In this document: positions 14,507-33,214 of the stretch, piece after piece
Position numbering within the stretch: the stretch's first letter is position 1
How the letters are laid out: every line of letters starts with the position of its first letter
NCBI GenBank assembly: GCA_963774015.1
Contig: CAVZDH010000001.1
Location: 1,206,945-1,270,944, forward strand
Source: an uncultured delta proteobacterium
GTDB taxonomy: Bacteria > Desulfobacterota > Binatia > UTPRO1
Length of the DNA: 64,000 nucleotides
Reading direction: 5' to 3'
The notes under the pieces: generated by a model
The model's database searches: none
Told to the model about the DNA's origin: nothing
The model's input: only the letters and a program-made list of their open reading frames with translations
Translations under genes and position numbers: made by a program

Positions 14507-14568
14507 CTCCGTAGCGACCGGCGTAGCGCAGGCATGTCAGCAATCACCAGACGGGGCGCGGCGAGCAG

Positions 14569-14750: not shown

Positions 14751-14939
14751 CCCGCACGACGAGCCGGCGTCGCGGGGCGTCTTCGAGTCGGCTCGCGGCG
14801 CAGGTCACGCACGCGGGATTTCGCGTCGAGCGGCAACGCCGCGTCTTTCGCATCCCTGGGGTTCCTGCTGCCGCCGGCGCTCGCGGTCGCGCGGCGTCCG
14901 TACTCGCGACGAGTAGAGCTTCAATGGCGCGTCGCGGCC

Positions 14940-15524: not shown

Positions 15525-15678
15525 ACACCTCAGCGGGGCGTTCAGCTCGATTCGAGCCGCAGCCGTCGGTCCCCACGCTCAGGATCGGCCGTACGCACGG
15601 CGCGGATCTATCCCAGCACGGGCCACCCAGGTTACCATCGCCGGGTCGTGCCTCGCGATCAGCCGCGCATGCCCGCCG

Positions 15679-16635: not shown

Positions 16636-18965
16636 GCCATCGCCACCACCGGGCGGGCACGCTCGACGCGCATGTCGGGCTTGTCCTGGAGGAACACCTG
16701 GAACCCCTCGCACACCGTGGTCCACGGGCACTCCGCGCAGACCTCCCGCTTTTCGCGGCGCGCTCCGAGCCACTCGTAGAGGTTCACTTGCTCGGGAAAG
16801 CGGGGGTCGGCGGCGAAGACCATGGTGCGGCCCATCTTCTGCAGGTCGCCGACGACGTAGCGTTCGTAGCCCGGAAAGACGCAGAACTGCGCGTTGATGA
16901 CGTAGATCTGGATCTCGTCCGCATAGCGGTCGATGACGCGCATCACCGCGTTCGCCGCCTCCTCGAGCGGCGGCACCACGTCCTCCCAGGCCCGCCCGAA
17001 CGGGGTGGTGAACTGGAAGTTGATCTTGGAGAACCCCTTCGCCACCGCCAGCGCGGTGAGCGCCATGAGGTGCGCGACGTTGGCGCGCACGATCGTGACG
17101 TTGAGGCCGGTCTCCAGGTGCGCGGGCCCGCGCGCGCCGAGCGCGCTGCGCAGCTCCATGACGTTGTCGATGCCGGCGACCGTCTCCGCGAAGCTGCCGG
17201 GCGAGTCGGTGGCCGCTTCGTGCACCTCGGCGGTGGCGCCGTGCAGCGAGATCAGGAGGTGCGAGATGCCGCTGCCGACGACGCGCTCGGCGAGCGCCCG
17301 GTCGCGCAACAGGCGGCCGTTGGTCGTCAGGTTGATCGAGCGATAGCCGAGCTCGCGGGCGAGGCCGATGGCGTCCGTGAGGCGCGGGTGCGTCGTCGGC
17401 TCGCCGCCGTCGATGTCGAGCTGGTCGGTCCCTTCGTCGCGGTGCTGCCGCAGGATCTCCTCGATCTTGTCCCACCCGAGCGCGGCCGACACGCGGTCGC
17501 CGGTGGCGCAGAACACGCACCGGTTGGCGCACTTGTAGGTGATGTTCATGATGAGCTTCTGCGCCGCGCGGGCCGCGATTTTCATGTCGAACGCGGCGCG
17601 CGCCTTCTCGAGGTACCCCGGAGGGCAGCCGGGCGGGTCGAAGCAGGGGCGGTGCTGGAAGAGCGCCCCGTCCTTGAGATCGATGCCCCCGGGCGGGATG
17701 AGTCCCATGGACACGCACTCGTCGTGGAGCGCGGTGCCGAGGATCGGGGTCGCGAACTGCATCGACGGCCACGCCCGGTAGCGGTCGTAGAGCTCCCACG
17801 CCATCTCGAGCGTGCCGGTCACGTGCGCCGGCGTCTCCCAGGGAAAGCCGATGATGTAGTGGCTCATGAGCGGCACGTCGATCTCGCGGCACCACTCCGC
17901 GACGCGACGAATGGCCTCCAGCGGCTGGCCCTTGCCGATGGGTCCGTTCAGATCTTCCTGCGTCGCGCTCTCCGCCGAGATGCTGAGCATGCCGACGCGC
18001 CCCTTCATGAGCGCGATCGCTTCGCGGCTCAGGTGATCCGCGCGCATGCCGTTCGGGAAGTCATAGGTGAAGTCGAGCTCGTTCAGCATGCGGAGCATCG
18101 CCTCGAAGTCCGTCCGGACGTTCACCATCTCGTCCAGGACGATCAGCTTTGTCGCGCCGAATACGGTCTTGAGGAGATATGCCCAGTGCGTGAGGCGGGG
18201 CAGGGGGATCGGCCGGTAGAGCTTGCGTCCCGTCCGTCGCCAGCCCGGGTTGCTGGTGCAGAAGATGCAGCGATGCGGGCAGCCGATGCTGGTGACGAAC
18301 GAGCGCGTCCCGGTGCCGACGCCGAACGTGTTCTGCCATGTCCCGTCGCCGAAGCAGCGCTCGAGGAAGCGATCGAAGTTGCCGACGTCGATGCCGTCGA
18401 GGAAGTAGAACGGCTCGAGCGGGTCGGCGCCGCGCCCCTCCGAGCCGCGCAGCACGACGCGCGCATCGCCAAGGCTCGCGAGATATTCGGGCTCGGCGAA
18501 GAGACGCTCGCCGGGATACTTCAGGATCGCGTCGAGCTCCGGATATTGCGCCAGCGCCTGGTCGGCGTCGTAGTCGGCGTAGTGCTGGCCGCCCACGTAG
18601 CCGTCGGCGAGTAGCAGGACGGAGCGCGGAAATCGCGCCCGGAGCGCCGCGATCAAGGCACGCGTCTCGGCATGGGCGTTCTCGATGCGGAGGAAGACGG
18701 GACCGCCGAGGACCACGACGTCGTACCTGCCGCGGGGGAGCGACGCGATGAAGTCGTCGTGGCCGACGCCGAGCACCCATCCACCGGCGGCCCGGCGGTG
18801 GCGACCCGAGTCGGGCAACGCGAACGCGTCGTGCACCGTGACCTCGGCGCCCGACCGCGCCGCCAGCCCGGCACACGCGAGCAACCCGTGATTGGCGAAG
18901 AACGGGTAGTCGATGAAGTCGTCCTCGAGGACGAGCGGCGGATTGATGAAGAGGAAACGGGACAT
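16632..18965 (-). CDS. B12-binding (class B) radical SAM domain fused to a second radical SAM/SPASM-like domain (777 aa)
   Basis: N-terminal LFINPP..GLLACAGLAARSGAEVTVHD (cobalamin-binding fold), then CPHRCIFCTS, then a second core YKCANRCVFCATGD with DIDGGEPT, and a C-terminal CAECPWTTVCEGF. It is one continuous ORF. Confidence 0.8.
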   Translation of the reverse strand: MSRFLFINPPLVLEDDFIDYPFFANHGLLACAGLAARSGAEVTVHDAFALPDSGRHRRAAGGWVLGVGHDDFIASLPRGRYDVVVLGGPVFLRIENAHAETRALIAALRARFPRSVLLLADGYVGGQHYADYDADQALAQYPELDAILKYPGERLFAEPEYLASLGDARVVLRGSEGRGADPLEPFYFLDGIDVGNFDRFLERCFGDGTWQNTFGVGTGTRSFVTSIGCPHRCIFCTSNPGWRRTGRKLYRPIPLPRLTHWAYLLKTVFGATKLIVLDEMVNVRTDFEAMLRMLNELDFTYDFPNGMRADHLSREAIALMKGRVGMLSISAESATQEDLNGPIGKGQPLEAIRRVAEWCREIDVPLMSHYIIGFPWETPAHVTGTLEMAWELYDRYRAWPSMQFATPILGTALHDECVSMGLIPPGGIDLKDGALFQHRPCFDPPGCPPGYLEKARAAFDMKIAARAAQKLIMNITYKCANRCVFCATGDRVSAALGWDKIEEILRQHRDEGTDQLDIDGGEPTTHPRLTDAIGLARELGYRSINLTTNGRLLRDRALAERVVGSGISHLLISLHGATAEVHEAATDSPGSFAETVAGIDNVMELRSALGARGPAHLETGLNVTIVRANVAHLMALTALAVAKGFSKINFQFTTPFGRAWEDVVPPLEEAANAVMRVIDRYADEIQIYVINAQFCVFPGYERYVVGDLQKMGRTMVFAADPRFPEQVNLYEWLGARREKREVCAECPWTTVCEGFQVFLQDKPDMRVERARPVVAMA

Positions 18966-18969
18966 TGCG

Positions 18970-20007
18970 CTACAGGGGGCGCTCCATCGCCTGCTGCCGG
19001 CGCTCGAGCGACGGCTGCTCGGTCAGGGAGCGGCGACCGCCTCGTGCCATGAGCCGCGCCATGAGCTCCGGCGACGGGTTGCGTCTCAGCACTTTCGCGA
19101 TCACCGGGGTGGGGTCGTCGAAGATCGGCGAGAGCTCGCGCTCGTCGTAGCTCTTCGCCATCGAGAACATGCCCGCACAGATCGGGTCGAAGCGGCACGC
19201 CTGACAAGCGTCACCCTTGCCGTGGAGGAACTCCTTCTGGTGGATGAAGCCCTTGAAGTCGAGGAAGCGAATGCAGCGCTCCTCCTCCTTGATGATCTTG
19301 CGCGCTTCCGTCGAGGCCCACGCGTAGCGCCGCATGTAGCAGAGCGGCACGCGCTCGGCGCGAAAGCTCCGCCCCGTGCTCACGAGGTAGTCCATCGCCT
19401 TCTCGAGCGACACCTGGAACTCGTAGTGCCGCGGGATGCAGTCGGGATTCTCCTCGGCGCGATTGCCGTCGGGGTCCATGTTGTTCCAGACGAAGTGGCG
19501 GATGAACGGGAAGTTCTCGCAGATCCAGCGGACGTTCTCGTGGAGATGGTCGGCGTTCCAGACGTTGATGACGGTGTTGATGTCGGAAGTGATGCCCATC
19601 TCCGGGACGTGCTCCAGGCAGCGGACCAGCACGTCCCACGCCCCGCGATACTGCGTGATGAAGTCGTGGACCTCGCGCCGGTAGCTGTGGAGCGAAACGT
19701 GGATGTGGGTCAGGCCGGCATCGACGCAGCGCTTGAAGAAATCCTTGTCGGCGAGCTTCTGCCCGTTGGTGATCATGCGGCTGAAGAGCTTCCGCTCGCG
19801 TGCGTACGCGAGCGCGGGGAGCAGGAGCTCGGAGGTGCTCGGCTCCCCACCGGTCAGGATCACGCCGTCGTAGCCCATCTCGACGAGCTTATCGATGTTG
19901 CGGCGCATCTCGGGCTCGTCGAGATGCACGCCGGTCGGCGGGTTACTGCAGAAGTGGCACTTTTGGTAGCAGTTCCGCGTGAGCTGAAGGTAGCCGAGGT
20001 TTGCCAT
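18970..20007 (-). CDS. radical SAM / SPASM-like protein
   Basis: LTRNCYQKCHFCSNP. LTGGEPS. C-terminal CYMRRYAW..CIRFLD..GDACQACRFDPICAG. Confidence 0.85.
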   Translation of the reverse strand: MANLGYLQLTRNCYQKCHFCSNPPTGVHLDEPEMRRNIDKLVEMGYDGVILTGGEPSTSELLLPALAYARERKLFSRMITNGQKLADKDFFKRCVDAGLTHIHVSLHSYRREVHDFITQYRGAWDVLVRCLEHVPEMGITSDINTVINVWNADHLHENVRWICENFPFIRHFVWNNMDPDGNRAEENPDCIPRHYEFQVSLEKAMDYLVSTGRSFRAERVPLCYMRRYAWASTEARKIIKEEERCIRFLDFKGFIHQKEFLHGKGDACQACRFDPICAGMFSMAKSYDERELSPIFDDPTPVIAKVLRRNPSPELMARLMARGGRRSLTEQPSLERRQQAMERPL

Positions 20008-20016
20008 CGCCGGTCG

Positions 20017-21894
20017 TTACCCTTGGAGCGAAACCTGGCGCCGCTGCGCGGCCTCTTGGCGCGCGCGCTCGCGTTCCTCGCGTTTTTTTTGCGCGAACTC
20101 GATCAACGGCTCGACCGGGGCTGCTTGCGGCGGCGCGAACCCGGGGAGGCTCGGCCCGACTGGCTGCAGGGGCTGGCCGTCGCGGACGCGCGGGAGGGGT
20201 ATCGGCCGAAGCGCGAGCAGCTGCGCCGCCGCGTCCTCCGCCCACGCGCCTTCGCGCAGGGGCTGGAGCTCCGCGAAGCCCTGGTCGCGGATGAAATTGA
20301 TGTGCGCACCCTCGCAGCGCTCGTTCACGCGGCAATCGCGGCAGCGGAGCGATTTGGCCTGGTACCCGTGCACGACGTGCGTTCGTGCCAACTCACGGAT
20401 GGCGATGCGACCGGTCTCCGGGTCGAACAGCTTCCGCTCGAGCACCTTGGGCGCCTCGACGAGCTGTGTTCCCGGAGCGAGACAGGCGGTCAGACCGCTG
20501 GTCCGGATGGGGAGCGCGAGCTCGGTGAAGAAGCGCTTCAGATCGCGTACGTCGTTGGCGACCGCGTCTTTCAGGAACTCGTAGGTCGGCTGATGCAGAC
20601 GGACGACGTCGAGGTACGTCTGCACGCGCTCGCGCTGCGACAGCAGCCAGGGGGCGGTGCGCTGGTTCAGCTCGATCTCGACCTCGACACTCGCGGGCAA
20701 CGGCGTCCCGCTCAGCACGACGTCGAGCTGCTCCGGTTCGCGAAGAGCGAGCAGGAGGCGGTTCGGCACGCTCGCACGATCGACGAGTCGGGAGGTGCGT
20801 TTCGGTCGCACGTAGATGCCGACGTCCGGATGCACGCCGAGAGCTTCGACGTCCGGCAGATCGTCGATCTCGAGGCCGACGGATCGGCACCCGAACGGCA
20901 GTTCGCTCGGCGCCGGCAGGGTTTCGTTGGCTCCGTTGGCGGCGCCGATCCACCAGACGTTCCAGCTCTCCCGGTTCTGGCGCTCGATTACCCGATCGGC
21001 CGTGGTGCAGAACGGCTCGATGAAGCAGTGCACGCACCGCTCCTGTTGCCGGCATTCGAGGGGAACGCCTTCGTCGAGGTACTTGCGCACCTGGAAGCGC
21101 CGCCCGTTCACCTCGTCGAGCATCTTGTGCGGATCCTGGATGAGGTCTTCCAGACCCTCGAGGAACTCGACCGGGAAGCGATTCGTCCACACCACGACGT
21201 TGGGATGGCGGTTCAGGCGAAAGACCTTCTGCAGGCGGGGCAGGTGCTCGACGGGATCGTAGAAGAGGTCGTCCCGGTTCTCGAACGCCGCGCCCTGCGG
21301 GATGACGTGCAGGAGGTCGAACTCGTTGACTCCCACCGAGAGGCAGAGCGCGACGATCTTGTCGATGTACGCCACGTTCTGCTTGTTGATGCAGACGTCG
21401 ACGTTCACGATGACGCGTCCGTCGCGGCGGGCGCGGATCATGCCCTTCATGAGCCGGTCGAAGGCGCCCTCGACGCCCGTCAGGCGGTCGTGCAGCTCGG
21501 GCGTGTGGCCGTGCAGGCTGAACGTGATCTCGCCGAGACCGGCCTCGACGGCCGCCAGGTAGAAGTCGCGCTTCGCGAACATGTAGCCGTTGGTGACCGT
21601 CTGCACCCGGTTGTAGCCGATCTCCCGGGCGTAGCGGACGAAGTCGATGAACTTCGGGTGGATCGAGCCTTCGCCGCCCGACAGGATGACCTTGTCGGCG
21701 TTCAGCTCCTCGCGCCCGCGCCGGAGCTCTTGGCGGACGTCGGGCTCCAGCAGGTACATGTTCCGCGGCGTGTCCGTGTCGAGGCAGAACACGCAGCGGC
21801 TGTTGCACGCCGTGACGAGCCGTACCCAGTGCTTCCGGACGTTGGCCGCGCGCTCGCGGTCCAGCATCCGTTCCGTCAGCTGTCCAGCATCCAT
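20017..21894 (-). CDS. radical SAM protein with a long C-terminal extension (625 aa from MDAGQ; alternative start at 21921)
   Basis: VTACNSRCVFCLD and LSGGEGS. A downstream Cys pair ..CRDCRVNERCEG, then a K/R/E-rich tail. The upstream third of the 968-aa ORF is R-rich, non-coding-like, and overlaps gene 21876..23813. Confidence 0.8.
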   Translation of the reverse strand: MDAGQLTERMLDRERAANVRKHWVRLVTACNSRCVFCLDTDTPRNMYLLEPDVRQELRRGREELNADKVILSGGEGSIHPKFIDFVRYAREIGYNRVQTVTNGYMFAKRDFYLAAVEAGLGEITFSLHGHTPELHDRLTGVEGAFDRLMKGMIRARRDGRVIVNVDVCINKQNVAYIDKIVALCLSVGVNEFDLLHVIPQGAAFENRDDLFYDPVEHLPRLQKVFRLNRHPNVVVWTNRFPVEFLEGLEDLIQDPHKMLDEVNGRRFQVRKYLDEGVPLECRQQERCVHCFIEPFCTTADRVIERQNRESWNVWWIGAANGANETLPAPSELPFGCRSVGLEIDDLPDVEALGVHPDVGIYVRPKRTSRLVDRASVPNRLLLALREPEQLDVVLSGTPLPASVEVEIELNQRTAPWLLSQRERVQTYLDVVRLHQPTYEFLKDAVANDVRDLKRFFTELALPIRTSGLTACLAPGTQLVEAPKVLERKLFDPETGRIAIRELARTHVVHGYQAKSLRCRDCRVNERCEGAHINFIRDQGFAELQPLREGAWAEDAAAQLLALRPIPLPRVRDGQPLQPVGPSLPGFAPPQAAPVEPLIEFAQKKREERERARQEAAQRRQVSLQG

Positions 21895-23813
21895 CGTACC
21901 GACCTCGCGTTCCGCTGCCATCCGATCGCCGTGCCCGGGCAGCCGATCACGGTACACACATTTCCGTCGTCGCCGCAGCTCGCAAATGCGCCGACTGGAT
22001 CCGAGCCACGCGGGGCGTACTCGACGCGTCGGCCGAACGCGACGCCGAATGCCGGCCCCTCGCCCTCCACCGACTCGCCGGAAGCACGATCGCCCACGTC
22101 GAGACCTGCTTCCTCGCACAGGCAGTGCGGCAGCACCGCCAATAGCGCCGATCGCGCGGCGCCCGCCGGCAAGCGGCGCGCGCACTCGACGACGTCGTCC
22201 AGTAAAGACCCGTCCGCCGCCAGGCGAAACCGCGGCTGCCCCGGCAGCTCGCCGCGGCTCCACGCGTCGACGAATAGGGGAACCAAGCGCGCGTCGTGGA
22301 TGATCCCGTACGCGCCGACCTCGATCGACGTGTGCTCGTGCAATCGCTCGATGCCACGCAGGGTCGCCGCGAAGGAGCCGGCGATCCCGCAGTGGGCGTC
22401 GTGGCTCGTTGCGTCGGGTCCATAGAACGCCACGTCGATGCGCCGGAGGTCCTTCAATCGACGCAAATCGACGTCGCTCCACTTGACGATGGCGCTCCCC
22501 TCGCCGGCGCATTCGACGCGCGGGAAGAGCCGGACCGCATCGAAGAGCAACGCGGCGGCCTTCGGATGAGCGAGCAGCTCGGCGCCCACGAGCTGCAACA
22601 CCGCCGGCCGGAAGCGCGCGGCCTCGACCAGCCTCGCGCGCACGGCGCGCGTCGACTCGGGTCCGAGCGTGGAATGACCGCCTGCGGTCGAATGACCGCC
22701 TGCGGTCGAATGACCGTCGGCGCACCCGTCGCACCGGAGGCGGCGGGGTCCGCGCCATGAGAGCACCATCGTTCCGGATGGCCGTACGCTCTGCTGCGCG
22801 GCGACGTTCTCCCGAACGCGCTCCGCGATCGGCGCCAGGTCGGCGAGCTCTTCCCAACCGAAGCGCGCAACGTAGTCCGCTGGGGCTCCCGCGCACTGCG
22901 GCCCGCCGGGGCAGTCCGGGCATCCGCGCCCGGCTTCGAGCCCACCATCACTCGACCGCGCCGACTCCATCGACGCGACCGACTGCGCCGACTTGGTCGG
23001 TGCGACCGTGCCGCCCGTCGTCAGCCACACTTCGGCGTCGGAGCGGGCGAAGAGCCGTCGCAGCCGCGGCGCCACGCAGAGGGGGAAATCGCGAATCACC
23101 AAGCGGGCCCGTCGCTGGAGTGCGATCGTCGCCGCGCGTTCGAGATCCTCGGCGAGCAGCGACAGGCGCGGCGAGAGCAGGACGAATTCGGGGACGTCGA
23201 CGTCGACTGCGGTGAGACGCCGGAGCGAGATCGTCCGGACACCAACGCGCGTGAGGACGTCGACCGTCTCCGCGAGATGCGGCATCGTCGGCCGGGTGAC
23301 GACGACCTCGGCCTCGACCGGCATGCCGGTGTCGACGCAGGTGCGAATCGCGCGCAGCGCCGTCTTGAGCGCGCCCGGTTGCCCGACCAACCAGTCGTGG
23401 GCATCCCGGCGTGCACAGTGAAACGGTATGCTCAGCCGCTGCACGCCGGCGGATCGCAGCCGGTCGACCACGGTGTTCGTGAGTCCGGCACCCGTGGTGC
23501 AGAGGCCCAGATTCTCGGGGCGTAGCTCCAAGAGATCGTGGAGAAGAGAGGGCAGGTCGGCGCGGCGAAGCGGATCTCCGCCACCGATCAGGAAGGCGCC
23601 GGGTCGGTCCGTGACGGCGCGCGCGGCGTGGAGGACGTCGCTCGCCGGAAGCTCATCGTCGGCCGCCGCCGCACCGCCTCGCCACGGCAAGCGGGCCGGA
23701 CCGCGAACCAGCGAGACACGGAGGTTGATGCCCCGGATCGAGGCACCTGGTCCGGGGCCCCGTCCGCGCTCTTCGCTCGACGGCGTCGGATAATCGTGGA
23801 GAGTGGTGTTCAC
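21876..23813 (-). CDS. tandem double radical-SAM-like/SPASM-like protein lacking the CxxxCxxC triad in both halves
   Basis: Half 1: ..GINLRVSLV.. (no Cys), FLIGGGDPL, then CPDCPGGPQC. Half 2: VLQLVGAELLAHP, then CGDDGNVCTVIGCPG. The halves are joined by a GGHSTA x3 linker. Confidence 0.6.
   Translation of the reverse strand: MNTTLHDYPTPSSEERGRGPGPGASIRGINLRVSLVRGPARLPWRGGAAAADDELPASDVLHAARAVTDRPGAFLIGGGDPLRRADLPSLLHDLLELRPENLGLCTTGAGLTNTVVDRLRSAGVQRLSIPFHCARRDAHDWLVGQPGALKTALRAIRTCVDTGMPVEAEVVVTRPTMPHLAETVDVLTRVGVRTISLRRLTAVDVDVPEFVLLSPRLSLLAEDLERAATIALQRRARLVIRDFPLCVAPRLRRLFARSDAEVWLTTGGTVAPTKSAQSVASMESARSSDGGLEAGRGCPDCPGGPQCAGAPADYVARFGWEELADLAPIAERVRENVAAQQSVRPSGTMVLSWRGPRRLRCDGCADGHSTAGGHSTAGGHSTLGPESTRAVRARLVEAARFRPAVLQLVGAELLAHPKAAALLFDAVRLFPRVECAGEGSAIVKWSDVDLRRLKDLRRIDVAFYGPDATSHDAHCGIAGSFAATLRGIERLHEHTSIEVGAYGIIHDARLVPLFVDAWSRGELPGQPRFRLAADGSLLDDVVECARRLPAGAARSALLAVLPHCLCEEAGLDVGDRASGESVEGEGPAFGVAFGRRVEYAPRGSDPVGAFASCGDDGNVCTVIGCPGTAIGWQRNARSVRWMLDS
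22672..22725 (-). repeat. 18-bp tandem repeat (gaatgaccgcctgcggtc, 2 perfect + 1 diverged) encoding GGHSTA x3
   Basis: Direct reading. It lies in the inter-domain linker of the 21876..23813 gene. Confidence 0.7.
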
Positions 23814-23884: not shown

Positions 23885-25540
23885 TCAATCGCGGTTGCGC
23901 AGCGACGATCGCGCGGTGCGGAGCGCGCTGGCTTCCTGGAGCAGGTGGGCGTAGGGCCCCCGTTTTCGCCGTCCCTCCGACCTCGGGTGGAGGAGACCCC
24001 GCACCCGGTCGATGCCTGTTATCCGCTCGCCGCCGCAATTGAGCCACGAGCCATCCGACGTCACGAGCTCCTCGAGGAAGTCGGGACGGCGCCGAAGGAG
24101 CTGGAGCGCATCCGCCTGCGCGAATGCGCGGTCGACGAGGGCCCGGCTCTCCGCGACGCGCGCGTCCCAGGCCGGCTTGGTGAGCGTCGTCGTGGCCGGC
24201 AGCGGACAGGGGACCTGCTGGCCGAGGAGCATGGTCATCAGCCCCTGATAGCCGAACGTCGGATCGCCCATTACGAAGCGGTGCGCGTCGGTCTCGAGCC
24301 CGGGGCCGAACCTGGCGAAGCGTTCCAACACCGGTGCGAGCCCCGAGACCTCGACGGTTTCGCGGCAATCTCGCCAGAATGGCGTATCGAGCTTGCGATT
24401 GAACTTGTAGTGGATCGCGAGGAACCAGCGCAGGTCGTCCCAGTGTCTCCCGATGCCCTCGTTCGCGAACGCGCGGTATTCGGGGCGGTCGCCGGACGCT
24501 TGTATGCCGCCGAGCAGGTACGCGATCTCGATGATCACCATGTGGAGCGCCGTCGACTCGAGCGGCTCGACGAAGCCGTAGGAGTTGCCGATCGCCACGG
24601 TATTGCCCTTCCAGAACTCCCGGTGACGGCCGCTCCGGAAGCGCACCGACCACGGCTCGCCGAGCCCGGGATTCTTCGCCCGCATCTCGGCCAGTGCCAG
24701 GTCCGCATTCAGGTGCGCCGACGAGTACACGTAGCCGCGATGGTCCTCACCCTCGACGGGGATCCGCCAGCACCAGCCGGCATCCATCGTCTCCGCGGTG
24801 GTGTAGGGCTGAATGACGCCGGTCTGTGGGACGGTCGCCACGACCGCGGTGTCGCAGAGGAGGCTCGACGCGTAGCTCGTGAAGGGCGAGCCCAGGATCT
24901 TTTCGATCAGCAAAGCGCGGAACCCGGTCGCGTCCACATAGAGGTCGGCGCGCAGCTCACGCTCGTCGTCGAGGATCAGCCGGTCGATGCTTTCGCCGTC
25001 GGTGGTTGTCGCGTCTTTGACGACCGCGTCGACGTGATGGATCCCGCCGCGTCGAGCGTGCTTCGTGAGGTAGGTGACGAAGGGCTGGTTGTCGACGTGG
25101 TACGCGAACTTGAGATCCGGGAGGAGCGAGAGCGGGGCGCCATCGTCGCCCCGCACGATCGGCGTGCGGTTGGTCGCCATCATCATCGCGACCACCGACT
25201 GGTTCTCGATCGTGCCGTCGTGGGTGTAGGCCTCGACGACGTTGTTGTCGCCGAACCCGTAGGCGAAACGGTAGTCGCCGGGCAGTCCCCACTCGAAGTT
25301 GATGCCGAGCTTCCACGTCGGGCGGACCTCACGGTAGAAGTCGACGATGTCGATGCCGAGCTGCTGGTGCAGGAACGGCGGCATCAGAGTCGTCGTCGCT
25401 TCGCCGACGCCGATGATCGGAATCGTGCTCGACTCGACCAGCGTCACGTCGAGCTCCGGGAGCTGCCGCTTCAGCGCGAGCGCCGCGAAGTAGCCTGCGG
25501 TTCCTCCGCCGACGACGACGACGCGGCGAACAGGCCCCAT
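23885..25540 (-). CDS. FAD-dependent tryptophan-halogenase-family protein
   Basis: VVVGGGTAGY. GVGEAT. The WxWxIP motif (GWCWRIP). The length and order of motifs match PF04820. Confidence 0.85.
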   Translation of the reverse strand: MGPVRRVVVVGGGTAGYFAALALKRQLPELDVTLVESSTIPIIGVGEATTTLMPPFLHQQLGIDIVDFYREVRPTWKLGINFEWGLPGDYRFAYGFGDNNVVEAYTHDGTIENQSVVAMMMATNRTPIVRGDDGAPLSLLPDLKFAYHVDNQPFVTYLTKHARRGGIHHVDAVVKDATTTDGESIDRLILDDERELRADLYVDATGFRALLIEKILGSPFTSYASSLLCDTAVVATVPQTGVIQPYTTAETMDAGWCWRIPVEGEDHRGYVYSSAHLNADLALAEMRAKNPGLGEPWSVRFRSGRHREFWKGNTVAIGNSYGFVEPLESTALHMVIIEIAYLLGGIQASGDRPEYRAFANEGIGRHWDDLRWFLAIHYKFNRKLDTPFWRDCRETVEVSGLAPVLERFARFGPGLETDAHRFVMGDPTFGYQGLMTMLLGQQVPCPLPATTTLTKPAWDARVAESRALVDRAFAQADALQLLRRRPDFLEELVTSDGSWLNCGGERITGIDRVRGLLHPRSEGRRKRGPYAHLLQEASALRTARSSLRNRD

Positions 25541-27022
25541 CTAGCGATGCCGGCCGGCTCCGGTCGTCCAGCGCTGCAGGATCTCGATCGTCGCGCGGTC
25601 GTTCTCGTCCGCCAGTGACGCGAACAGCGTGCGTGCGACGGCCATGTGCTCCTTGCACTCGAAAGATCGCGGCCGTTGACCGAAGAGGTCTCCTTCGCGG
25701 ACGTAGCTCGTCACGGGGGAGATGCCGCAGAACGGCTTGTTCCAGCAGTCCGCGCACATCGGCTGCGCGTCGAGGAGCGATGCCGCCGTGATCGCCCGGA
25801 CCGTCGGGTGTCGGACGATGTCGGCGATCGTCAGCTTTCGCACGTTGCCGAGCGCGAAGATGGGATCCCCCAGCGCGTCGACGCGCCGTGCCTCGTCGCT
25901 CGGGAATATCTGGCCATCGACGTCGTACAGGAGCTCGCTCGTCCCGGCCGAGCACGGCGATCGGATCTCCCGCGCAGCGGGATTCCCGCAGGACAGGATG
26001 CTGTTCAGGAACCCCGACGCCGTTCGCTCGGCGAGGCGCACCCCGCTGCGATTCAGCTCCAGGATATGGCCGAACGCACGGTCGTAGAATGCCAGGTATT
26101 CCTCGGCAGTGTACCCGATCGTTTGCCACGCCTCGGCGTCGAAGCCGAGCGGGCTGAGCGGTTGCAGCTGGATGGACTGCATCCCACGAGCCACGTACTC
26201 GTCCACGACCTCGCGCCACGCCGGCAGCGTTCGCCGCGTCGTCGTGACTCTGGTGTCCACGTGCCAAACCTCGGGATCGCGACCGAGGTCGCGGTATCGA
26301 CGCTCGAACCACGCGAGCCACCGCACCACGTCCGCGTGTGCGCCGGCCACCGTGTACCTGCGGTTCCACTCGTGGATCTCGGCTGGTCCGTCGAGCCACG
26401 TCCGGACGGCGACGTCGTTTGCGAGCAGCCACTCCGCGGTCTCCTCCGTCATCCCGCTCAGGTTGCTGACGAGCGTGAAGCGGAGCGTCTTGCCCGCGGC
26501 GCGCTCGTTCGTCGCCCGCGCGAATTCCACCAGGTGCCGGACGCCGTCGACGTTCAGCAGCGGCTCGCCCGCATGCGCCTGCAGCTCGAACGACACCGAA
26601 GGGGACGTGGTCTGGAGCGCGACGTCGACGATGCGCTCGGCCGTTTTCCGATCGAGGTCCAGGCGAGCGTCGGGTGACGCGGACGGGGCCTCGCCACGGT
26701 CATCGCAGCGCCGGGTCATCATGACGACGTGCAGCTCCGGCCCGCGCGCGACATGGCCCACGCGCCGCGCCAGCCTGGTTGCGAGCGCGTCGAGATCGAG
26801 GCCGTCGCGAAGAAAACCCCCGGCGTGGAGCTGCGCGAAGCGCGGGTGGCCTTCCGTGACCTCTCCCGCGAGCAGTTGGACGAACTCCGGCTCGCTCAGG
26901 AGCACCCAATCGCCACCGTCCGTGGTGATCAGAACCTTCCCGGCGATTCGGCCCCAGCGAAAGAATCCCAGCCGATCGATCGCGACCGTCGACGGGAAAG
27001 GTACCGCGAAGCTCGCGGACAT
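25541..27022 (-). CDS. HxsB/HxsC-like radical-SAM-fold maturase homolog with a degenerate Fe-S motif (..MTRRCDDRGEAP..) and a C-terminal SPASM-like cluster
   Basis: Second rSAM motif QAHAGEPLL. CADCWNKPFCGISP. Only one Cys where CxxxCxxC is expected. Tightly packed with neighbours (1-nt and 0-nt junctions). Confidence 0.65.
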   Translation of the reverse strand: MSASFAVPFPSTVAIDRLGFFRWGRIAGKVLITTDGGDWVLLSEPEFVQLLAGEVTEGHPRFAQLHAGGFLRDGLDLDALATRLARRVGHVARGPELHVVMMTRRCDDRGEAPSASPDARLDLDRKTAERIVDVALQTTSPSVSFELQAHAGEPLLNVDGVRHLVEFARATNERAAGKTLRFTLVSNLSGMTEETAEWLLANDVAVRTWLDGPAEIHEWNRRYTVAGAHADVVRWLAWFERRYRDLGRDPEVWHVDTRVTTTRRTLPAWREVVDEYVARGMQSIQLQPLSPLGFDAEAWQTIGYTAEEYLAFYDRAFGHILELNRSGVRLAERTASGFLNSILSCGNPAAREIRSPCSAGTSELLYDVDGQIFPSDEARRVDALGDPIFALGNVRKLTIADIVRHPTVRAITAASLLDAQPMCADCWNKPFCGISPVTSYVREGDLFGQRPRSFECKEHMAVARTLFASLADENDRATIEILQRWTTGAGRHR

Positions 27023-27312
27023 TACTGAGCGCCCTCCGGACGGCCCTCCGGGCGGCCCTCCGAGGCTTCGGGCGCCTCCGGCGCCTCGAGCGCGGCGGCC
27101 CGCCGCATTCGCACGACGGTTTCCTGCAAGGCGAGGTTGCAGAACGAGTGCTCGATCGTGTCGCGATCAGCGCCGCGAACGGCGCCGACGACCGCGACCA
27201 CCGCGTCGCCCGAGTGCTCGAGGGCGATGTCCGCGTACTCGGCGTAGGTCGCCGCTGCTGCCTCGACGGCGTCGGGAGCGTACAGCGATCGGTCGAAGGT
27301 GATCCGGCCCAT
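27022..27312 (-). CDS. HxsD-like small protein (96 aa)
   Basis: MGRITFDRSLYAPDAVEAAAATYAEY..EHSFCNLALQETVVRMRR. Pattern Y..EAI..AAY...(40 aa)..F.N.LL....R. The upstream 41 codons of the ORF look spurious. Confidence 0.55.
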   Translation of the reverse strand: MGRITFDRSLYAPDAVEAAAATYAEYADIALEHSGDAVVAVVGAVRGADRDTIEHSFCNLALQETVVRMRRAAALEAPEAPEASEGRPEGRPEGAQ

Positions 27313-27328
27313 CCGAAACGTGGCGACC

Positions 27329-27838
27329 CTACTTCGGCTCGCTTCCCTTGTCGCTTTGCTTCCCTTCCCAGGGAACGGAGATCTCGAGCGGGTCGTCCCC
27401 GAGCTCTTCCGCGTCGAGCTCGGCGAGGAGATCATCGACGGACGGCGCCGAGGCCGCTGCTCGCAACGCTGCGGCCGTGTAGTACTCGCGGATGCGCGCG
27501 GCGGCGTGCGATAGGCGCAGCCGCGTCGCCTGCGAGAGCATCTCGTTCATGAACTCGCCGGCGAGCACTTCGAGCTCGGCGGACGTCGCTGGTGCACGCG
27601 ACGTCAAGCGAACGTTCACCACCTGGGGTCTCGGCCGGGAGAGAAACACGAAGCACCGGTCGACGAAAAGATACGCCCCCCCGTAGATCGCTTCGAGGGA
27701 ATAGACCGTCTCGTCGACGTCGAATGATGCATGATCGCGCCCGAACGAGACGCCGAGGCGCGACTCGGGGACTTCCGACCGAACGTCATGTTCACCGATC
27801 GCCACGGCTCTTCCTTTCGCCCGTCGTTCTTGGTTCAC
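27329..27838 (-). CDS. second HxsD-like paralog (up to 169 aa; start uncertain)
   Basis: ..VYSLEAIYGGAYLFVDR..GEFMNEMLSQATRLRL. Same pattern as above. GTG start at 27838. Confidence 0.45.
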   Translation of the reverse strand: MNQERRAKGRAVAIGEHDVRSEVPESRLGVSFGRDHASFDVDETVYSLEAIYGGAYLFVDRCFVFLSRPRPQVVNVRLTSRAPATSAELEVLAGEFMNEMLSQATRLRLSHAAARIREYYTAAALRAAASAPSVDDLLAELDAEELGDDPLEISVPWEGKQSDKGSEPK

Positions 27839-28236: not shown

Positions 28237-28415
28237 AGCGGATCGCGTCCCCAAGTGCCGCGCCCCCACATGTCGCACATATCGCTCATAAGCGTTTCGC
28301 AAAAAGGCGGCTCGTCCGCGATGACGATCCACGCGGTGGTGGTCTCTGCGGAGCGGCATGGTGGGGAAGGATGTCGGAGGCGCGAGGGAGTCAGGTTTCC
28401 AGAAGGGAGCGGGCG

Positions 28416-29021
28416 ATGCTTTCACGACGCGAATTGATCGGCAAAGCGGCAGTGGGTGCGGCCGCAGCGTTGGCAGTGGGGGGCATGGGAACGGCGGTGG
28501 CGGCGACGCGGCCCCTGCGGGTGCCGATGGACGATCCCACGCGCGGCCGGGACGGGCGGACAGCGACGGACGCGCCCATGGACGCCGCGGAGGCGCCGGA
28601 CGCCGCCGCAGCGAGCGCCGCGCCGCCGCCCTGGGAGCTGCTGGCGCCGTTCCGTGCGGGCGCCGTGGTCGCGCACGGCTGGCGTCTCGTCGACGTGACG
28701 CCGATCCGGGACGGATCGGCGGTCGTGACGCTGCAGAACGCGCGTGGGCGCGCGCACCGCGTGCATCTTTGCCGCAATGACGGGAGCCCGCAGGGGATCG
28801 TCTACACGCGGCGGGTCGATCTCGTGGTGATGAATCAGGGCTACGGGGATCTTCCGACCGAGGAGCATCTGGGGCAGGCCGTTGCGACGCTGGCGCATGC
28901 GGTGGCGGCCAACGAGGCCCGGGTGCCGGACGGCGTATTCGCCGAGCTCGTGCCGCACGCCGAGCGCGTGCGGCGCTACGCGGCGGCGGCGGATGCTTCG
29001 GCGGACGGCAGGCTGCGGTGA
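28416..29021 (+). CDS. Tat-signal secreted hypothetical protein
   Basis: RBS agggagcgggcg, then MLSRRELIGKAAVGAAAALAVGG (twin-arginine motif). It lies 37 nt upstream of the HxsA-like gene. Confidence 0.6.
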   Translation: MLSRRELIGKAAVGAAAALAVGGMGTAVAATRPLRVPMDDPTRGRDGRTATDAPMDAAEAPDAAAASAAPPPWELLAPFRAGAVVAHGWRLVDVTPIRDGSAVVTLQNARGRAHRVHLCRNDGSPQGIVYTRRVDLVVMNQGYGDLPTEEHLGQAVATLAHAVAANEARVPDGVFAELVPHAERVRRYAAAADASADGRLR

Positions 29022-29058: not shown

Positions 29059-29376
29059 ATGAGCGACCAAGAGAAGGGGCTGCCGTTACTGCGCAAGACG
29101 CCGGTGGATTTCCTCAGTCGGGAGGAAGCCCGCCAAGCGCTCAATCCCGACGTCGCGCTGGACGCGTCCGAGGCGGCGCGGGCGCTGCGCGCCGAACCCA
29201 ACAGCGAGAAGCTGCTGCTCGCCCAACATTTGTCCCACGCATCGCACGGCAGCCACGGGAGTCACGGCAGCCATGGGAGTCACGGGAGCCACGGGAGCCA
29301 CGGCAGCCACGGCAGTCACGGCTCGCACGGCAGTCACGGTTCCCACGGCAGTCACGGCTCTCACGGGTCGTGGTGA
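29059..29376 (+). CDS. hxsA: His-Xaa-Ser repeat precursor peptide (HxsA-like): leader plus (H-G/A-S)x16 and a C-terminal Trp
   Basis: RBS ggtgaaggag, then ATG 29059. Leader MSDQEKGLPLLRKTPVDFLSREEARQALNPDVALDASEAARALRAEPNSEKLLLAQHL. Core SHASHGSHGSHG....SHGSW*. Confidence 0.75.
   Translation: MSDQEKGLPLLRKTPVDFLSREEARQALNPDVALDASEAARALRAEPNSEKLLLAQHLSHASHGSHGSHGSHGSHGSHGSHGSHGSHGSHGSHGSHGSHGSHGSW
29235..29370 (+). repeat. 9-bp coding microsatellite (cac-ggn-agy)n, ~15 units
   Basis: Direct reading of the hxsA core region. Confidence 0.85.
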
Positions 29377-29425
29377 GAATCCGCCCGGTATCAGAACGCA
29401 CCTCGGCGTAAACGGAGGCATCGCG

Positions 29426-32400
29426 ATGACGATAGCTCGGCCACAGCGGAGAATTTGGGCGGCGCAGACCCGTGCGTTCGGTACGACGACACCGGGTCGC
29501 GCAAGACGGCACGGCTCGGCTCTGGCCAGCATGGCGACCCTGGCGGTCCTCGGACTGCTGGTCGCGGCGGCGCCGGCCGCGGCAATCGTCCTCACCGGCG
29601 GGCCGACGTATTCGCCTGGTAGCGGGTGGTCCTGCACCGCGCCGGCTGCCGGCCTCGAGAAGCTCGCCGGTGGCGGCAACTACTCGTGTAGCGGCACCGC
29701 GAGCGCATTCAGCAATCTCTACATCGGCATCAACAGCAACACGGGCTCGCCGTTCGGCGACAAGATGAACAGCAGCGGCGGCTCCGAGCCGAGCGGCGCG
29801 GAGCGGTTCGTGTGGTCGGCGAACGGCTCGACCTTCATCCGCTACACGGGGACCACCTCGATCACCGGCTTCGGCACGGTGTTCACGCGCGTGACGCTCA
29901 CGTTCAGTGCCTCGGGCGCGGTGGTGGACGACGCGACGACCCAGGCCCTCACCGGCACCAATATCAACGGCTCGGTGCATGCGTTGTGGCGCATTGGGTC
30001 GGGGGTCGGTGCGATGACCGTCAACGTCCTGATCGAAGCGAGCAGCAGCTCCGGCGGGCCCTGGTCTCCGGCGGACGTGTTTTTCAACAACGGCGGGCAC
30101 CGCTTGGGTAACGGCACCGACGTCGACCGCTCGCACGTCGACCTGGCGTTCTACACATCGACCTGCGGCGATGGCCAAATCGATACCGTGGCCGGGACTG
30201 ATGCGAGTGCCGAGCAGTGCGACACCGGGATCGCCGGCAGCGTCTGCTGCAACTCCAACTGCACCTTCAACAGCGGTAGCGTGTGTCGCGCCGCGGCGGG
30301 CGTGTGCGACGTGCAGGAGACCTGCAACGGGTCGAGCGCGACGTGCCCGGCCAATGCCTTCGTGAGCTCGGCGACGGTCTGCCGGCCGTCGGCGGGGGTC
30401 TGCGACACGGCGGAGAACTGCACGGGATCGTCAGCGGCATGTCCTGCCGACTCCTTCGCGAGCTCGGCGACGGTCTGCCGGTCGTCGGCGGGCATCTGCG
30501 ACACCGCGGAGAACTGCACGGGATCGTCAGCGGCATGTCCTGCCGACTCCTTCGCGAGCTCGGCGACGGTCTGTCGCGCGTCGGCGGGCATCTGCGACGT
30601 CGCCGAGAATTGCACCGGTTCGAGCGCCGCGTGTCCCGCCGACTCCTTCGCGAGCTCGGCGACGGTCTGTCGCGCGTCGGCGGGCGTCTGCGACGTCGCC
30701 GAGAATTGCACCGGGTCGAGCGCCGCGTGTCCGGCGAACGGCTTCCAGAGCTCGGCGACGGTTTGCCGTCCGTCGGCGGGCGTCTGCGACGTGGCGGAGA
30801 CCTGTACCGGGGCGAGCGCCGCATGTCCGGGCGACTCGTTCGAGAGCGCGGCGACGGTCTGCCGCGGCGCTGCCGGCGTCTGCGACCTGGCGGAGAACTG
30901 CACGGGCGCGTCGGCGGCGTGTCCCGCCGACAGCAAGAGCTCGGCGGTCTGCCGTCCGTCGGCGGGCGTCTGCGACGTCGCCGAGAGCTGCGACGGGGTC
31001 GGGAACAACTGTCCGGCCGACGGCTTCGCGAGCGCGGCGACGGTCTGCCGAGGCGCGGCGGGCGTCTGCGACGTGGCGGAGAACTGCACGGGCGCGTCGG
31101 CGGCGTGTCCGGCCGACAGCAAGAGCTCGGCGGTCTGCCGTCCGTCGGCGGGCGTCTGCGACGTCGCCGAGAGCTGTGACGGGGTCGGCAACAACTGTCC
31201 GGCCGACGGCTTCCTGAGCTCCTCGACGGAGTGCCGGAGCGCGGCGGGTGTCTGCGACCTGGCGGAGAACTGCACGGGCTCGTCGGCGGCATGTCCCGCC
31301 GACAGCAAGAGCTCGGCGGTCTGCCGTCCGTCGGCGGGCGTCTGCGACGTCGCCGAGAGCTGCGACGGGGTGGGTAACAACTGTCCGGCCGACGGCTTCG
31401 CGGGTGCCGCGACGGTTTGTCGGGCAGCGGGCGGCGTCTGCGACCTCGCGGAGAACTGCACCGGCGCGTCGGCGGCCTGCCCGGCCGATTCGAAGAGCAC
31501 CGCGGTCTGCCGTCCGAACGCGGGCGTTTGCGACACCCCCGAGACCTGCGACGGGGTGAGCAACGCCTGTCCGGCCGACACCTTCCTCTCGAGCGCGACC
31601 GTCTGCCGGCCTACCGCCGGCATCTGCGACGTCGCGGAGAACTGCTCGGGCTCGTCGGCTGCGTGCCCGACCGACGCTTTCGAGCCGAGCTCGACGGTCT
31701 GCCGCAGCGCCGCTGGCGTGTGCGACGCGGTCGAGAACTGCACCGGCAGTGGCGCGGCTTGCCCCGCCGACGGCAAGCTCAACGGCTCGACGACCTGCCG
31801 CGCGGCTGCCGACGTGTGTGACGTCGCCGAGACCTGCAACGGTTCATCCGACGACTGTCCCGCCGACGCCTTCGCCTCGTCGTCGACCGTCTGCCGGCCC
31901 GAGGCCGGCGTCTGCGACGTGGCAGAGAACTGCACGGGCAGCGGCGCGGCGTGTCCGGCCGACGCGGTGGAGCCGTCGAGCACCGAGTGCCGTCCGGTCG
32001 CCGGCATCTGCGACGTTGCCGAGAACTGCGACGGTAGCAGCGTGAACTGTCCGAGCGACTCCTTCGAGAGCAGCTCGGTTACCTGCCGGCCGGTGAACGG
32101 CGTCTGTGACGTCGCCGAGCAGTGCACCGGTACGGGCCCGAACTGCCCGGCCGACTCCTTCGAGAACAGCTCGGTGGTCTGCCGCCCATCCTCGGGCGTG
32201 TGCGATACCGTGGAGAGCTGCTCGGGCAGCGCGGCGGATTGCCCGGCCGATGGGGTCGAGCCGACCACCACGGTCTGCCGCCCGGCGGCGAGCACGGCCG
32301 ACGCGCCCGAGGACTGCGACGGCACGAACAAGTTCTGCCCGGCCGACGCCTTCTTGCCCGCCGGGACGCCGTGCGACGACGGCAGCTTCTGCACCTTCGA

Positions 32401-33214
32401 CGACCAGGCCGACGGCTTCGGGACCTGCGTCGGCCAGCCGGTCGATTGCGACGACCACAATCCCTGCACCGACGACTCGTGCGACTCGCAGTCGATGGGC
32501 TTCCTATGTGAGTACGTGAACAACGGCATCTGCATCGGGGCGAACTGCGGCAACTTCGTGGTCGACGCGGGAGAGACCTGCGATCCGCCCGACCTCGGCA
32601 TCGGCCCGAACGGCCAGCCCATCTGCCGGCTCGACTGCACGTCGTGCGGCGACGGCGTGGTGCAGGCGAACGACACCGAGACCTGCGACGACGGGAATCT
32701 GGTGAGCGGGTGCCGGACCGACAAGCCGCAAAAGCCGCTCGACGACTGCCTCAACAACTGCAACGAGCCGATCTGCGCCGACCCGGCCCGCATCCAGTTC
32801 GGGTCGGAGGTGCGGCCCGACGTCTACCAGTTCCACGGCCGCCTGATCTCGCCCGTGCCGGTGGACTTCGTGAACAACCACTTCGTGATCGAGCTCCAGG
32901 ACTCGAGCGGCAACGTGATCTACCGCTCGTCGTTGGTCCGCGGGTCGATCGAGGTGCAGAACGCGAAGTCGACACGTTACAAGAACCGTGGAGCGCGCGC
33001 CGCGGGTGGCATCTACCAGCTGAAGACGAAGCAGGCGGACGGCTACTACGTCGTGACCCTCAAGACCTACGGCGACATGTCGCTCGCGACGTCGGACATG
33101 TCGACGCACGTCTACATCGGCGCCGACGAATGGGCGATCCGCGGGATCTGGACGCAGCAGGGCTCGAAGGGCTGGAAGCTCACCAGCAAGGCGGTCTTCC
33201 TCCCCGTACCGTGA
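29426..33214 (+). CDS. giant secreted Cys-rich repeat protein. It has an N-terminal domain, ~25 tandem 32-aa CRxxAGxCDxAExCxGxSxxCPxD repeats, myxo-type CGDG..CDDGN Cys modules and a C-terminal beta-rich domain.
   Basis: RBS ggagg 8 nt before ATG 29426. Signal-like ..MATLAVLGLLVAAAPAAA. Repeats span 30285-32350, with adjacent 96-bp units identical at the DNA level. C-terminus ..YQLKTKQADGYYVVTLKTYG.. Confidence 0.8.
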   Translation: MTIARPQRRIWAAQTRAFGTTTPGRARRHGSALASMATLAVLGLLVAAAPAAAIVLTGGPTYSPGSGWSCTAPAAGLEKLAGGGNYSCSGTASAFSNLYIGINSNTGSPFGDKMNSSGGSEPSGAERFVWSANGSTFIRYTGTTSITGFGTVFTRVTLTFSASGAVVDDATTQALTGTNINGSVHALWRIGSGVGAMTVNVLIEASSSSGGPWSPADVFFNNGGHRLGNGTDVDRSHVDLAFYTSTCGDGQIDTVAGTDASAEQCDTGIAGSVCCNSNCTFNSGSVCRAAAGVCDVQETCNGSSATCPANAFVSSATVCRPSAGVCDTAENCTGSSAACPADSFASSATVCRSSAGICDTAENCTGSSAACPADSFASSATVCRASAGICDVAENCTGSSAACPADSFASSATVCRASAGVCDVAENCTGSSAACPANGFQSSATVCRPSAGVCDVAETCTGASAACPGDSFESAATVCRGAAGVCDLAENCTGASAACPADSKSSAVCRPSAGVCDVAESCDGVGNNCPADGFASAATVCRGAAGVCDVAENCTGASAACPADSKSSAVCRPSAGVCDVAESCDGVGNNCPADGFLSSSTECRSAAGVCDLAENCTGSSAACPADSKSSAVCRPSAGVCDVAESCDGVGNNCPADGFAGAATVCRAAGGVCDLAENCTGASAACPADSKSTAVCRPNAGVCDTPETCDGVSNACPADTFLSSATVCRPTAGICDVAENCSGSSAACPTDAFEPSSTVCRSAAGVCDAVENCTGSGAACPADGKLNGSTTCRAAADVCDVAETCNGSSDDCPADAFASSSTVCRPEAGVCDVAENCTGSGAACPADAVEPSSTECRPVAGICDVAENCDGSSVNCPSDSFESSSVTCRPVNGVCDVAEQCTGTGPNCPADSFENSSVVCRPSSGVCDTVESCSGSAADCPADGVEPTTTVCRPAASTADAPEDCDGTNKFCPADAFLPAGTPCDDGSFCTFDDQADGFGTCVGQPVDCDDHNPCTDDSCDSQSMGFLCEYVNNGICIGANCGNFVVDAGETCDPPDLGIGPNGQPICRLDCTSCGDGVVQANDTETCDDGNLVSGCRTDKPQKPLDDCLNNCNEPICADPARIQFGSEVRPDVYQFHGRLISPVPVDFVNNHFVIELQDSSGNVIYRSSLVRGSIEVQNAKSTRYKNRGARAAGGIYQLKTKQADGYYVVTLKTYGDMSLATSDMSTHVYIGADEWAIRGIWTQQGSKGWKLTSKAVFLPVP
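30285..32350 (+). repeat. array of 96-bp coding tandem repeats (many near-identical copies)
   Basis: For example, the block cacgggatcgtcagcggcatgtcctgccgactccttcgcgagctcggcgacggtctg.. recurs verbatim at 30421 and 30517. Confidence 0.8.

Follow-up and report, generated by a model that had tools for sequence, protein, structure and literature searches.

The 64,000-nucleotide (nt) stretch of contig CAVZDH010000001.1 analysed here (hereafter the window), which comes from an uncultured delta proteobacterium, carries on its minus strand at 23885..25540 a gene predicted to encode a MibH-like flavin-dependent peptidyl-tryptophan halogenase (551 aa, ATG start, matching PF04820 and MibH). The gene is part of a maturase operon, and its candidate substrate is the tryptophan that ends HxsA4, a precursor peptide of His-Xaa-Ser (HxS) repeats encoded outside that operon. 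The operon comprises nine genes, all on the minus strand from 27838 to 15679, separated by gaps of 0 to 71 nt or overlapping by a few bases. The first encodes an HxsD-like protein (27329..27838), which reaches 45 bits against TIGR03976 (cutoff 50) and whose syntenic homologues carry PF27806 HxsD, the second an HxsD-related small protein (27022..27312) matching NF038315 HxsD_rel (48 bits, cutoff 41) over residues 45-106 of its open reading frame (ORF); its likely start is Met42 of the ORF 27022..27435, and its homologues in three of the other loci compared (L166, L083, L168) are 78-81 aa long. The third gene encodes a 493-aa HxsB-like SPASM protein (25541..27022; TIGR03978, 365.1 bits, cutoff 370), which we call pseudo-HxsB, and the halogenase gene follows it. 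The TAG stop of the HxsB-like gene directly abuts the halogenase ATG (...CATCGC TAG ATG GGG...), a gap of 0 nt, whilst 71 nt separate the halogenase stop (23885) from the next gene, which starts with GTG at 23813, so that the absence of any intergenic gap claimed in an earlier note on this DNA, made by a model from the letters alone, holds on the HxsB side but not on the other.

Five genes lie 3' of the halogenase and together encode seven radical-SAM (radical S-adenosylmethionine) like domains, in addition to the degenerate HxsB. The first of these is a 645-aa protein (21876..23813; PF04055 E = 2.6e-14 at residues 53-178, weak HxsC and HxsC4 matches), 69-73% identical in sibling operons, which the earlier note had correctly labelled a double pseudo-radical-SAM protein, there being no CxxxCxxC in either half. 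It is followed by a 625-aa radical-SAM enzyme with the motif CNSRCVFC (20017..21894; PF04055 E = 2e-17; 83-88% identity in sibling operons), a 345-aa HxsC-like radical-SAM enzyme with CYQKCHFC (18970..20007; TIGR03977 HxsC E = 2e-27, 95.8 bits and below the cutoff of 267.9; PF04055 E = 1.4e-21), whose ratio of nonsynonymous to synonymous substitution rates (dN/dS) is 0.04-0.06, and a 777-aa protein with two radical-SAM domains, CPHRCIFC and CANRCVFC (16632..18965; PF04055 in two stretches), the C-terminal half of which is HxsC4-like (NF038332, E = 3.4e-33, 115.2 bits, cutoff 500). The last operon gene encodes a 318-aa radical-SAM enzyme with CNVQCDYC (15679..16635; PF04055 E = 7.3e-17), its start overlapping the preceding stop by 4 nt, and the operon is followed by a Uma2 gene of opposite orientation.

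The precursor gene hxsA4 lies on the plus strand at 29059..29376 and points away from the maturase operon; ~1.2 kb separate it from the start of hxsD and 3.5 kb from the halogenase gene, and it lies behind a gene for a twin-arginine translocation (TAT) signal protein, TAT216 (28371..29021, plus strand; twin-arginine motif SRRELIGK). It encodes 105 aa (NF038313 HxsA4, 102.2 bits, cutoff 55), namely a leader, then AQHLSHAS(HGS)n, then the C-terminal Trp105; the peptide holds 16 His, 16 HxS units and exactly one Trp, its last residue, the single terminal Trp and the many His being as the earlier note had described them. Three observations make 29059..29376 the most likely extent of the gene: an AAGGAG Shine-Dalgarno sequence stands 7 nt upstream, homologues share the start Met, and the part of the ORF matched by NF038313 is residues 67-164. 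No other HxS-repeat ORF occurs in the 64-kb window, and precursors 93-96% identical to it occupy the same position in L090 and L166. The exact 105-aa peptide is absent from a collection of 15 billion proteins in which neighbour proteins from the same contig are present; in public annotation hxsA4 was probably left uncalled or called with another start. As tblastn with HxsA4 missed precursors, owing to their repeat composition, a regular-expression scan for HxS runs was used instead.

The halogenase ORF is complete, as the earlier note had read it from three quoted motifs: PF04820 (Trp_halogenase) matches over profile positions 1-442 of 458 (Pfam; E = 3.5e-113, 379.3 bits, cutoff 21), and an alignment of 82 sequences places GGGTAGY at residues 11-17, GVGEAT at 44-49 and GWCWRIP at 255-261. 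Both the flavin adenine dinucleotide (FAD) binding motif GxGxxG (GGGTAG, residues 11-16) and the WxWxIP motif (GWCWRIP), as defined in PMC5945002, are intact. The catalytic Lys/Glu pair, on which the earlier note had made its claim depend, is present, with Lys77 invariant in 82 of 82 aligned clade members and Glu328, the second Glu of FVEPLEST, shared by 76 of the 82. Both residues were assigned via K83/E349 of BrvH in a phmmer alignment, in which a chain numbering offset of +2 leads to the second E of EPLES; the BrvH pair is equivalent to K79/E357 of RebH and K79/E346 of PrnA (PMC5945002). The best solved relative by phmmer is 5UAO (E = 8.8e-143, 480 bits, query residues 2-507), which is MibH, the Trp-5 chlorinase of the lanthipeptide NAI-107 according to PMC10858898, all other solved halogenases, including PrnA, RebH, PyrH, Thal and BrvH, scoring 212 bits or less. 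An AlphaFold2 model of the halogenase (predicted local distance difference test score 87, predicted template modelling score 0.90) also found 5UAO as its top Foldseek match (E = 3.5e-55, template modelling (TM) score 0.85-0.92, root-mean-square deviation 2.0-2.3 Å, 45-46% identity), and PyrH next (E = 7e-38, 30% identity). By its full-length match and its modelled fold, both closer to MibH than to the free-tryptophan halogenases, it belongs to the peptide-acting MibH clade and not to the free-tryptophan group. GC content at third codon positions is 0.88, like that of the neighbouring genes, and dN/dS between the window, L089 and L166 (0.21-0.28) indicates purifying selection, about as strong as on the degenerate HxsB (0.23-0.27) and weaker than on the active radical-SAM genes (0.04-0.16).

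Linkage of the halogenase to Hxs genes recurs in other genomes. In a halogenase-anchored set of 80 loci, one genome per species, Hxs proteins sought within 10 kb were found at five (L002, L006, L011, L012, L041), and further anchoring, on HxsB in metagenomes and on close halogenase proteins, yielded four more linked loci (L089, L166, L098, L168). L089 and L166 have the nine-gene order of the window with proteins 69-96% identical, and the others differ in layout: L011 reads HxsB-HxsA4-radical-SAM genes-halogenase, with the halogenase last, 17 nt after the homologue of the 777-aa protein; in L012 the halogenase lies between radical-SAM homologues and adjoins the 777-aa homologue; in L041 it is 3-5 kb from HxsD-HxsB-HxsA4; and L002, L006, L098 and L168 hold a short module, TAT216-HxsD-HxsD-related-HxsB-halogenase, with neither HxsA4 nor the downstream radical-SAM set of the window in the available flank. 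The linkage therefore occurs in at least four gene layouts, at 49-81% halogenase identity. A neighbour-joining tree groups the Hxs-linked halogenases in a single clade dominated by Myxococcota, apart from that of L041, which lies near the actinomycete MibH group; the Myxococcota-dominated clade also includes members without Hxs genes in the available flank. The short-module halogenases and that of L167 carry Gln in place of the catalytic Glu (PrnA E346), the motif being FVEPLQST. As a separate observation, two loci have a second, degenerate halogenase-like sequence, at 7964..10000 (plus strand) in L041, with a weak PF04820 match at profile positions 250-378, and at 14288..15790 (minus strand) in L168, with fragmented tblastn matches at 38-66% identity, each adjoining the intact halogenase.

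The HxsB-like protein whose gene abuts the halogenase is itself degenerate. Where true HxsB proteins align as 'TLRCNxxCxYCHASR', pseudo-HxsB reads 'MTRRCDDRGEAPSAS', so that CxxxCxxC is absent, no Radical_SAM domain was found in it by Pfam, and two SPASM-region cysteines are missing as well. It is nevertheless conserved, at 53-80% identity across many loci (dN/dS 0.23-0.27), and this loss of the motif from a conserved protein suggests a non-catalytic role, for example in peptide binding or scaffolding. The degenerate form occurs in the window, L006, L086-L094, L096-L098, L111, L113, L114, L166 and L168, and the true form with the motif in L041, L082, L083, L085, L095 and L112; L166 has one of each, whilst a true HxsB was found nowhere in the 64-kb window.

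The reading that we favour, at a probability of roughly 0.55, is that the halogenase may optionally chlorinate or brominate the C-terminal Trp105 of HxsA4, and we propose that it would work as a two-component, FADH2-dependent enzyme of the MibH type acting on Trp side chains in ribosomal peptides. The clade, the catalytic residues, the operon position, the recurrent Hxs linkage, the purifying selection and the optional nature of the step are shown by the analyses. HxsA4 would be bound by the HxsD, HxsD-related and HxsB-like proteins, with pseudo-HxsB perhaps a binder only, and the four radical-SAM proteins that keep a cysteine motif (five domains) would then modify the HxS units. The halogenase, with reduced flavin from a reductase encoded elsewhere, O2 and halide, would generate hypohalous acid, which Lys77 and Glu328 would direct onto the Trp105 indole. 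In this scheme we infer the substrate, the indole position, the halide, the order of the steps, their timing relative to leader removal, the source of the reductase and the adaptor role of pseudo-HxsB. All four precursors available from halogenase-positive loci (the window, L011, L041, L166) end ...SHGSW, so that they share a candidate site, as the earlier note had required, and of its two proposed targets, Trp and His, the Trp finds support in the MibH clade, in these HGSW precursors and in the selection on the gene. More tentatively, and with the odds against the picture as a whole, the Myxococcota-type branch of HxsA4 systems could make a radical-SAM-modified poly(His-Gly-Ser) core with a halogenated C-terminal Trp, pseudo-HxsB serving as the adaptor that presents the peptide to the halogenase.

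Several observations weigh against assigning Trp105 to the halogenase. Five sibling operons (L086, L087, L090, L092, L093) have proteins 70-95% identical to those of the window and no halogenase, HxsB being followed directly by the 645-aa gene, and L090 among them keeps the divergent TAT216-HxsA4 pair with a Trp-terminal precursor 93% identical to that of the window. Conversely, no HxS-repeat ORF was found in the available flank of L002, L006, L012, L089, L098 and L168, and no Hxs proteins in that of the close relatives L001, L003, L005, L010 and L167, whose halogenases are 65-70% identical; the L001 flank gave only weak (24-35%) generic radical-SAM matches. The precursor gene is on the opposite strand and outside the operon transcript, so that the earlier note's halogenase embedded in a radical-SAM peptide operon is embedded among the maturase genes but not with the precursor. 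Among the operon genes, to which the screen applied, no flavin reductase, protease or exporter was identified; many flavin-dependent halogenases rely on housekeeping reductases.

The C-terminal Trp also counts against the reading when precursors are compared across the family. Of the 120 best HxsA4 protein matches (P0121-P0240), 44 end in W, 14 in Y and 12 in C (mostly ...RGGWC), the remainder including many truncated or frameshifted calls, and of the 31 complete HxsA4 ORFs in the HxsB- or precursor-anchored loci L081-L165, 26 end in W, four in Y and one in F, with a halogenase in none of these loci. A C-terminal aromatic residue is near-universal in the family (...HGSW, ...HGQW, ...HTSW, ...HSSY, ...HFSF, and a subgroup with ...RGGWC), across Omnitrophota, Elusimicrobia and Myxococcota. 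The conserved aromatic end that the earlier note had suggested looking for is thus there, but it is not specific to halogenase-positive loci: the C-terminal Trp is a trait of the HxsA4 family as a whole, mostly without a halogenase. Since it is kept in halogenase-free loci, those of Omnitrophota and Elusimicrobia included, the Trp must have another primary role, and its presence is no evidence of coupling to the halogenase.

The halogenase-free siblings retain what may be a trace of the gene. Four of the five (L086, L087, L092, L093) keep 'TAG ATGGGT' after HxsB, in spacers at 3103..3239 (L086), 2546..2682 (L087), 2523..2736 (L092) and 1372..1585 (L093), and in L092 and L093 ~85 nt of the spacer align collinearly with nt 1557-1637 of the 1656-nt L089 halogenase gene (alignment score 42, z = 6.2-6.5, above all 200 shuffles). 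L086 and L087 give a faint remnant signal (z about 3), and L090 gives none. This pattern is suggestive, not conclusive, of loss of the halogenase by internal deletion from a halogenase-bearing ancestor. Because near-identical operons lack the gene, the halogenation step would be optional and lineage-specific, and the halogenase is intact at the same position in three independent lineages.

The alternative that survives best is that the halogenase modifies Trp on another product of the module, either TAT216, which would be folded and modified in the cytoplasm before its export, or a peptide encoded elsewhere in the genome, and we regard it as unlikely. It draws on the short modules, which pair TAT216 with a halogenase and have neither HxsA4 nor the downstream radical-SAM set in the flank, on the invariant W73 and W89 of TAT216 and on the ability of ChlH to chlorinate a large protein at an internal Trp (bioRxiv 10.1101/2025.01.12.632611); an orphan hxsA4 away from maturases in L081 also makes it conceivable that the substrate is encoded in trans. 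However, TAT216 is present with or without a halogenase (L090, L091, L094, L095, L097), its Trp residues would be less accessible as they lie in or near a domain that is confidently predicted to fold, and the short-module halogenases are perhaps a poor guide to the window enzyme because Gln replaces the catalytic Glu. Quite improbable, in our view, is a halogenase that rides in the operon as a passenger, its substrate being free tryptophan, indole or some other small aromatic compound with no relation to HxsA4. Closely related halogenases are found in non-Hxs settings (L003, L005, L010, L167), the sibling operons do without the gene, and for certain PF04820 enzymes indole is the preferred substrate or the substrate is unknown (BrvH, PMC5945002), but the full-length match is to the peptide-acting MibH and not to free-tryptophan enzymes, the Hxs linkage recurs in at least four arrangements with the stop and start codons abutting at HxsB in the window, and profile searches of the neighbouring genes found no genes of a tryptophan-derived small-molecule pathway nearby.

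That the gene is inactive or decaying, the relic of an ancestral state, we consider very improbable: the apparent deletion scars in the siblings point to repeated loss and the halogenase dN/dS is above that of the active radical-SAM genes, but the ORF is full-length with all catalytic and cofactor motifs, its dN/dS stays at 0.21-0.28, well below 1, and it is kept in three lineages. The His imidazoles of the repeats are scarcely credible as halogenation sites, despite the 16 His in the core and the action of flavin-dependent halogenases on electron-rich aromatic rings, given that a Trp is available in every precursor from halogenase-positive loci; we know of no characterised PF04820 enzyme that halogenates imidazole. 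Specificity for Trp is common to all of the nearest characterised relatives (PMC12615548), and the His half of the earlier proposal is left without support.

Halogenation of Trp105, the reading we prefer, has close precedents in other peptide clusters. The clade members MibH, SrpI and ChlH act on peptide Trp, MibH after leader removal (PMC12615548, PMC10858898, bioRxiv 10.1101/2025.01.12.632611). MibH is the closest solved relative, matching across about 510 residues that take in the C-terminal substrate domain (TM score 0.85-0.92); it shares the FAD, WxWxIP, Lys and Glu motifs, and it too is a tailoring enzyme in a cluster for a ribosomally synthesised and post-translationally modified peptide (NAI-107/microbisporicin); the window cluster differs in being of radical-SAM/HXS type, in its C-terminal candidate Trp and in having no reductase identified in the operon. 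SrpI is described as a leader-dependent brominase of the C-terminal Trp of the proteusin SrpE, mined with a MibH query (PMC10858898, PMC12615548), which is the same reaction as proposed here, the comparison being one of described reactions. The SrpE leader is long and nitrile-hydratase-like, whereas the window core is of HxS repeats, and SrpI is, by those descriptions, an obligate brominase. ChlH, the chlorolassin halogenase, is 58% identical to MibH and chlorinates Trp on the linear precursor (bioRxiv 10.1101/2025.01.12.632611), from which it follows that the MibH clade tolerates unstructured peptide substrates; a lasso-peptide cluster, internal Trp residues and a cognate reductase, ChlR, set ChlH apart from the window system. 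Since SrpI performs the proposed reaction and the enzyme is a relative of MibH and ChlH, the chemistry is of a known kind, and HxsA4 and HxsC4 models are already curated in NCBIfam.

The Hxs side of the locus also has known counterparts. Canonical HXS (HxsD-HxsB-HxsC-HxsA) was described in 2026 as an antiphage system of Enterobacteria that blocks phage DNA entry, through radical-SAM maturation of a 214-aa periplasmic HxsA (+8 Da on an SHRSS motif); it has a fixed gene order, Pseudomonadota hold 99.7% of the systems, and the paper makes no mention of a halogenase (PMC13128918). The window shares HxsD-, HxsB- and HxsC-like proteins and a His-Xaa-Ser repeat substrate with it, but has a divergent, Trp-terminated precursor (105 aa, 16 repeats), seven radical-SAM-like domains and a TAT-signal partner. 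It departs from canonical HXS in HxsB, HxsC, HxsA architecture and gene order; its HxsD-like protein stays below the TIGR03976 cutoff and its second small protein passes NF038315. The precursor passes the HxsA4 model NF038313, and the HxsC4 model NF038332 is not reached (115.2 against 500 bits). The HXS label of the earlier note needs qualifying, as the system is the already curated HxsA4 variant and not canonical HXS. Another relative is the Omnitrophota locus L085, with HxsD, a small protein, true HxsB, a 246-aa protein, HxsA4 (...HGQW) and about ten radical-SAM genes, which resembles the window in its precursor family with C-terminal ...HGS/QW, in HxsD, the HxsD-related protein and HxsB and in its many radical-SAM genes, and differs in having neither halogenase nor TAT216, a true HxsB with CxxxCxxC and the precursor inside the operon. 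Darobactin clusters reportedly exist with a dedicated halogenase, according to a title cited in PMC12615548, and would be a precedent for halogenase tailoring of a Trp-containing peptide that a radical-SAM enzyme makes, their DarE and precursor being unrelated to those of the window.

No paper that ties a halogenase to HXS or HxsA4 systems came up in full-text searches, in keeping with the earlier note's claim that the modification had not been tied to HXS before. Judged from sequence comparisons, the HxsA4 family probably has a halogenated variant, which, if true, would be the first halogenation in the HXS superfamily. Few peptide-acting halogenases have been characterised (MibH, SrpI, ChlH, MppI) and more are wanted for late-stage peptide derivatisation; a linear, repeat-rich, Trp-ended precursor with a halogenase of this clade makes an easily tested pair, and the enzyme might tolerate many substrates. 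Widespread as the HxsA4 systems are, no product of theirs is known; the isotope signature of a halogen on the C-terminal residue would give mass spectrometry a handle on the mature product, and through it a way to the radical-SAM chemistry on the HxS repeats. The operon pairs with and without the halogenase offer a ready natural comparison. Decorated variants in other phyla raise the question whether they act as effectors of defence or are secreted as natural products.

TAT216, which stands between the operon and the precursor gene, is called publicly as a 201-aa protein with a start at about 28416, directly upstream of hxsA4 and divergent from hxsD. It belongs to no Pfam or NCBIfam family and its predicted fold matches no PDB fold; its own family is of ~200 aa with 939 homologues in the database, all unnamed, with the invariant residues W73, W89 and C119 and a confidently predicted alpha/beta domain. 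Homologues lie beside hxsD in L002, L006, L083, L090, L091, L094, L095, L097, L098, L166 and L168, always so in the Myxococcota-type systems, and TAT216 is absent from the Omnitrophota system. A PADLOC scan of ten locus proteins gave generic radical-SAM similarity to viperins only and no defence-system assignment, and a scan for promoters and terminators gave nothing above the expectation from shuffled sequence.

Several loci encode large Cys-rich repeat proteins beside hxsA4 or the Hxs module. In the window such a protein lies at 29423..33214 (plus strand; 17 Pfam Disintegrin repeat matches), and others are found in L081 (6342..9938 and 10264..12351), L084 (8484..10001) and L002 (3884..6100), some matching DUF4215; their proximity may reflect a functional link, or just their abundance in Myxococcota. 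In L081 the orphan hxsA4 is accompanied by these Cys-rich proteins, with no maturase gene nearby. Some loci have two copies of hxsA4, namely L084 (6607..6934 and 10025..10324), L154 and L162. L084 also has two TAT216 copies, many short broken ORFs and only a fragment of HxsB, and is either a poor assembly or a decaying locus.

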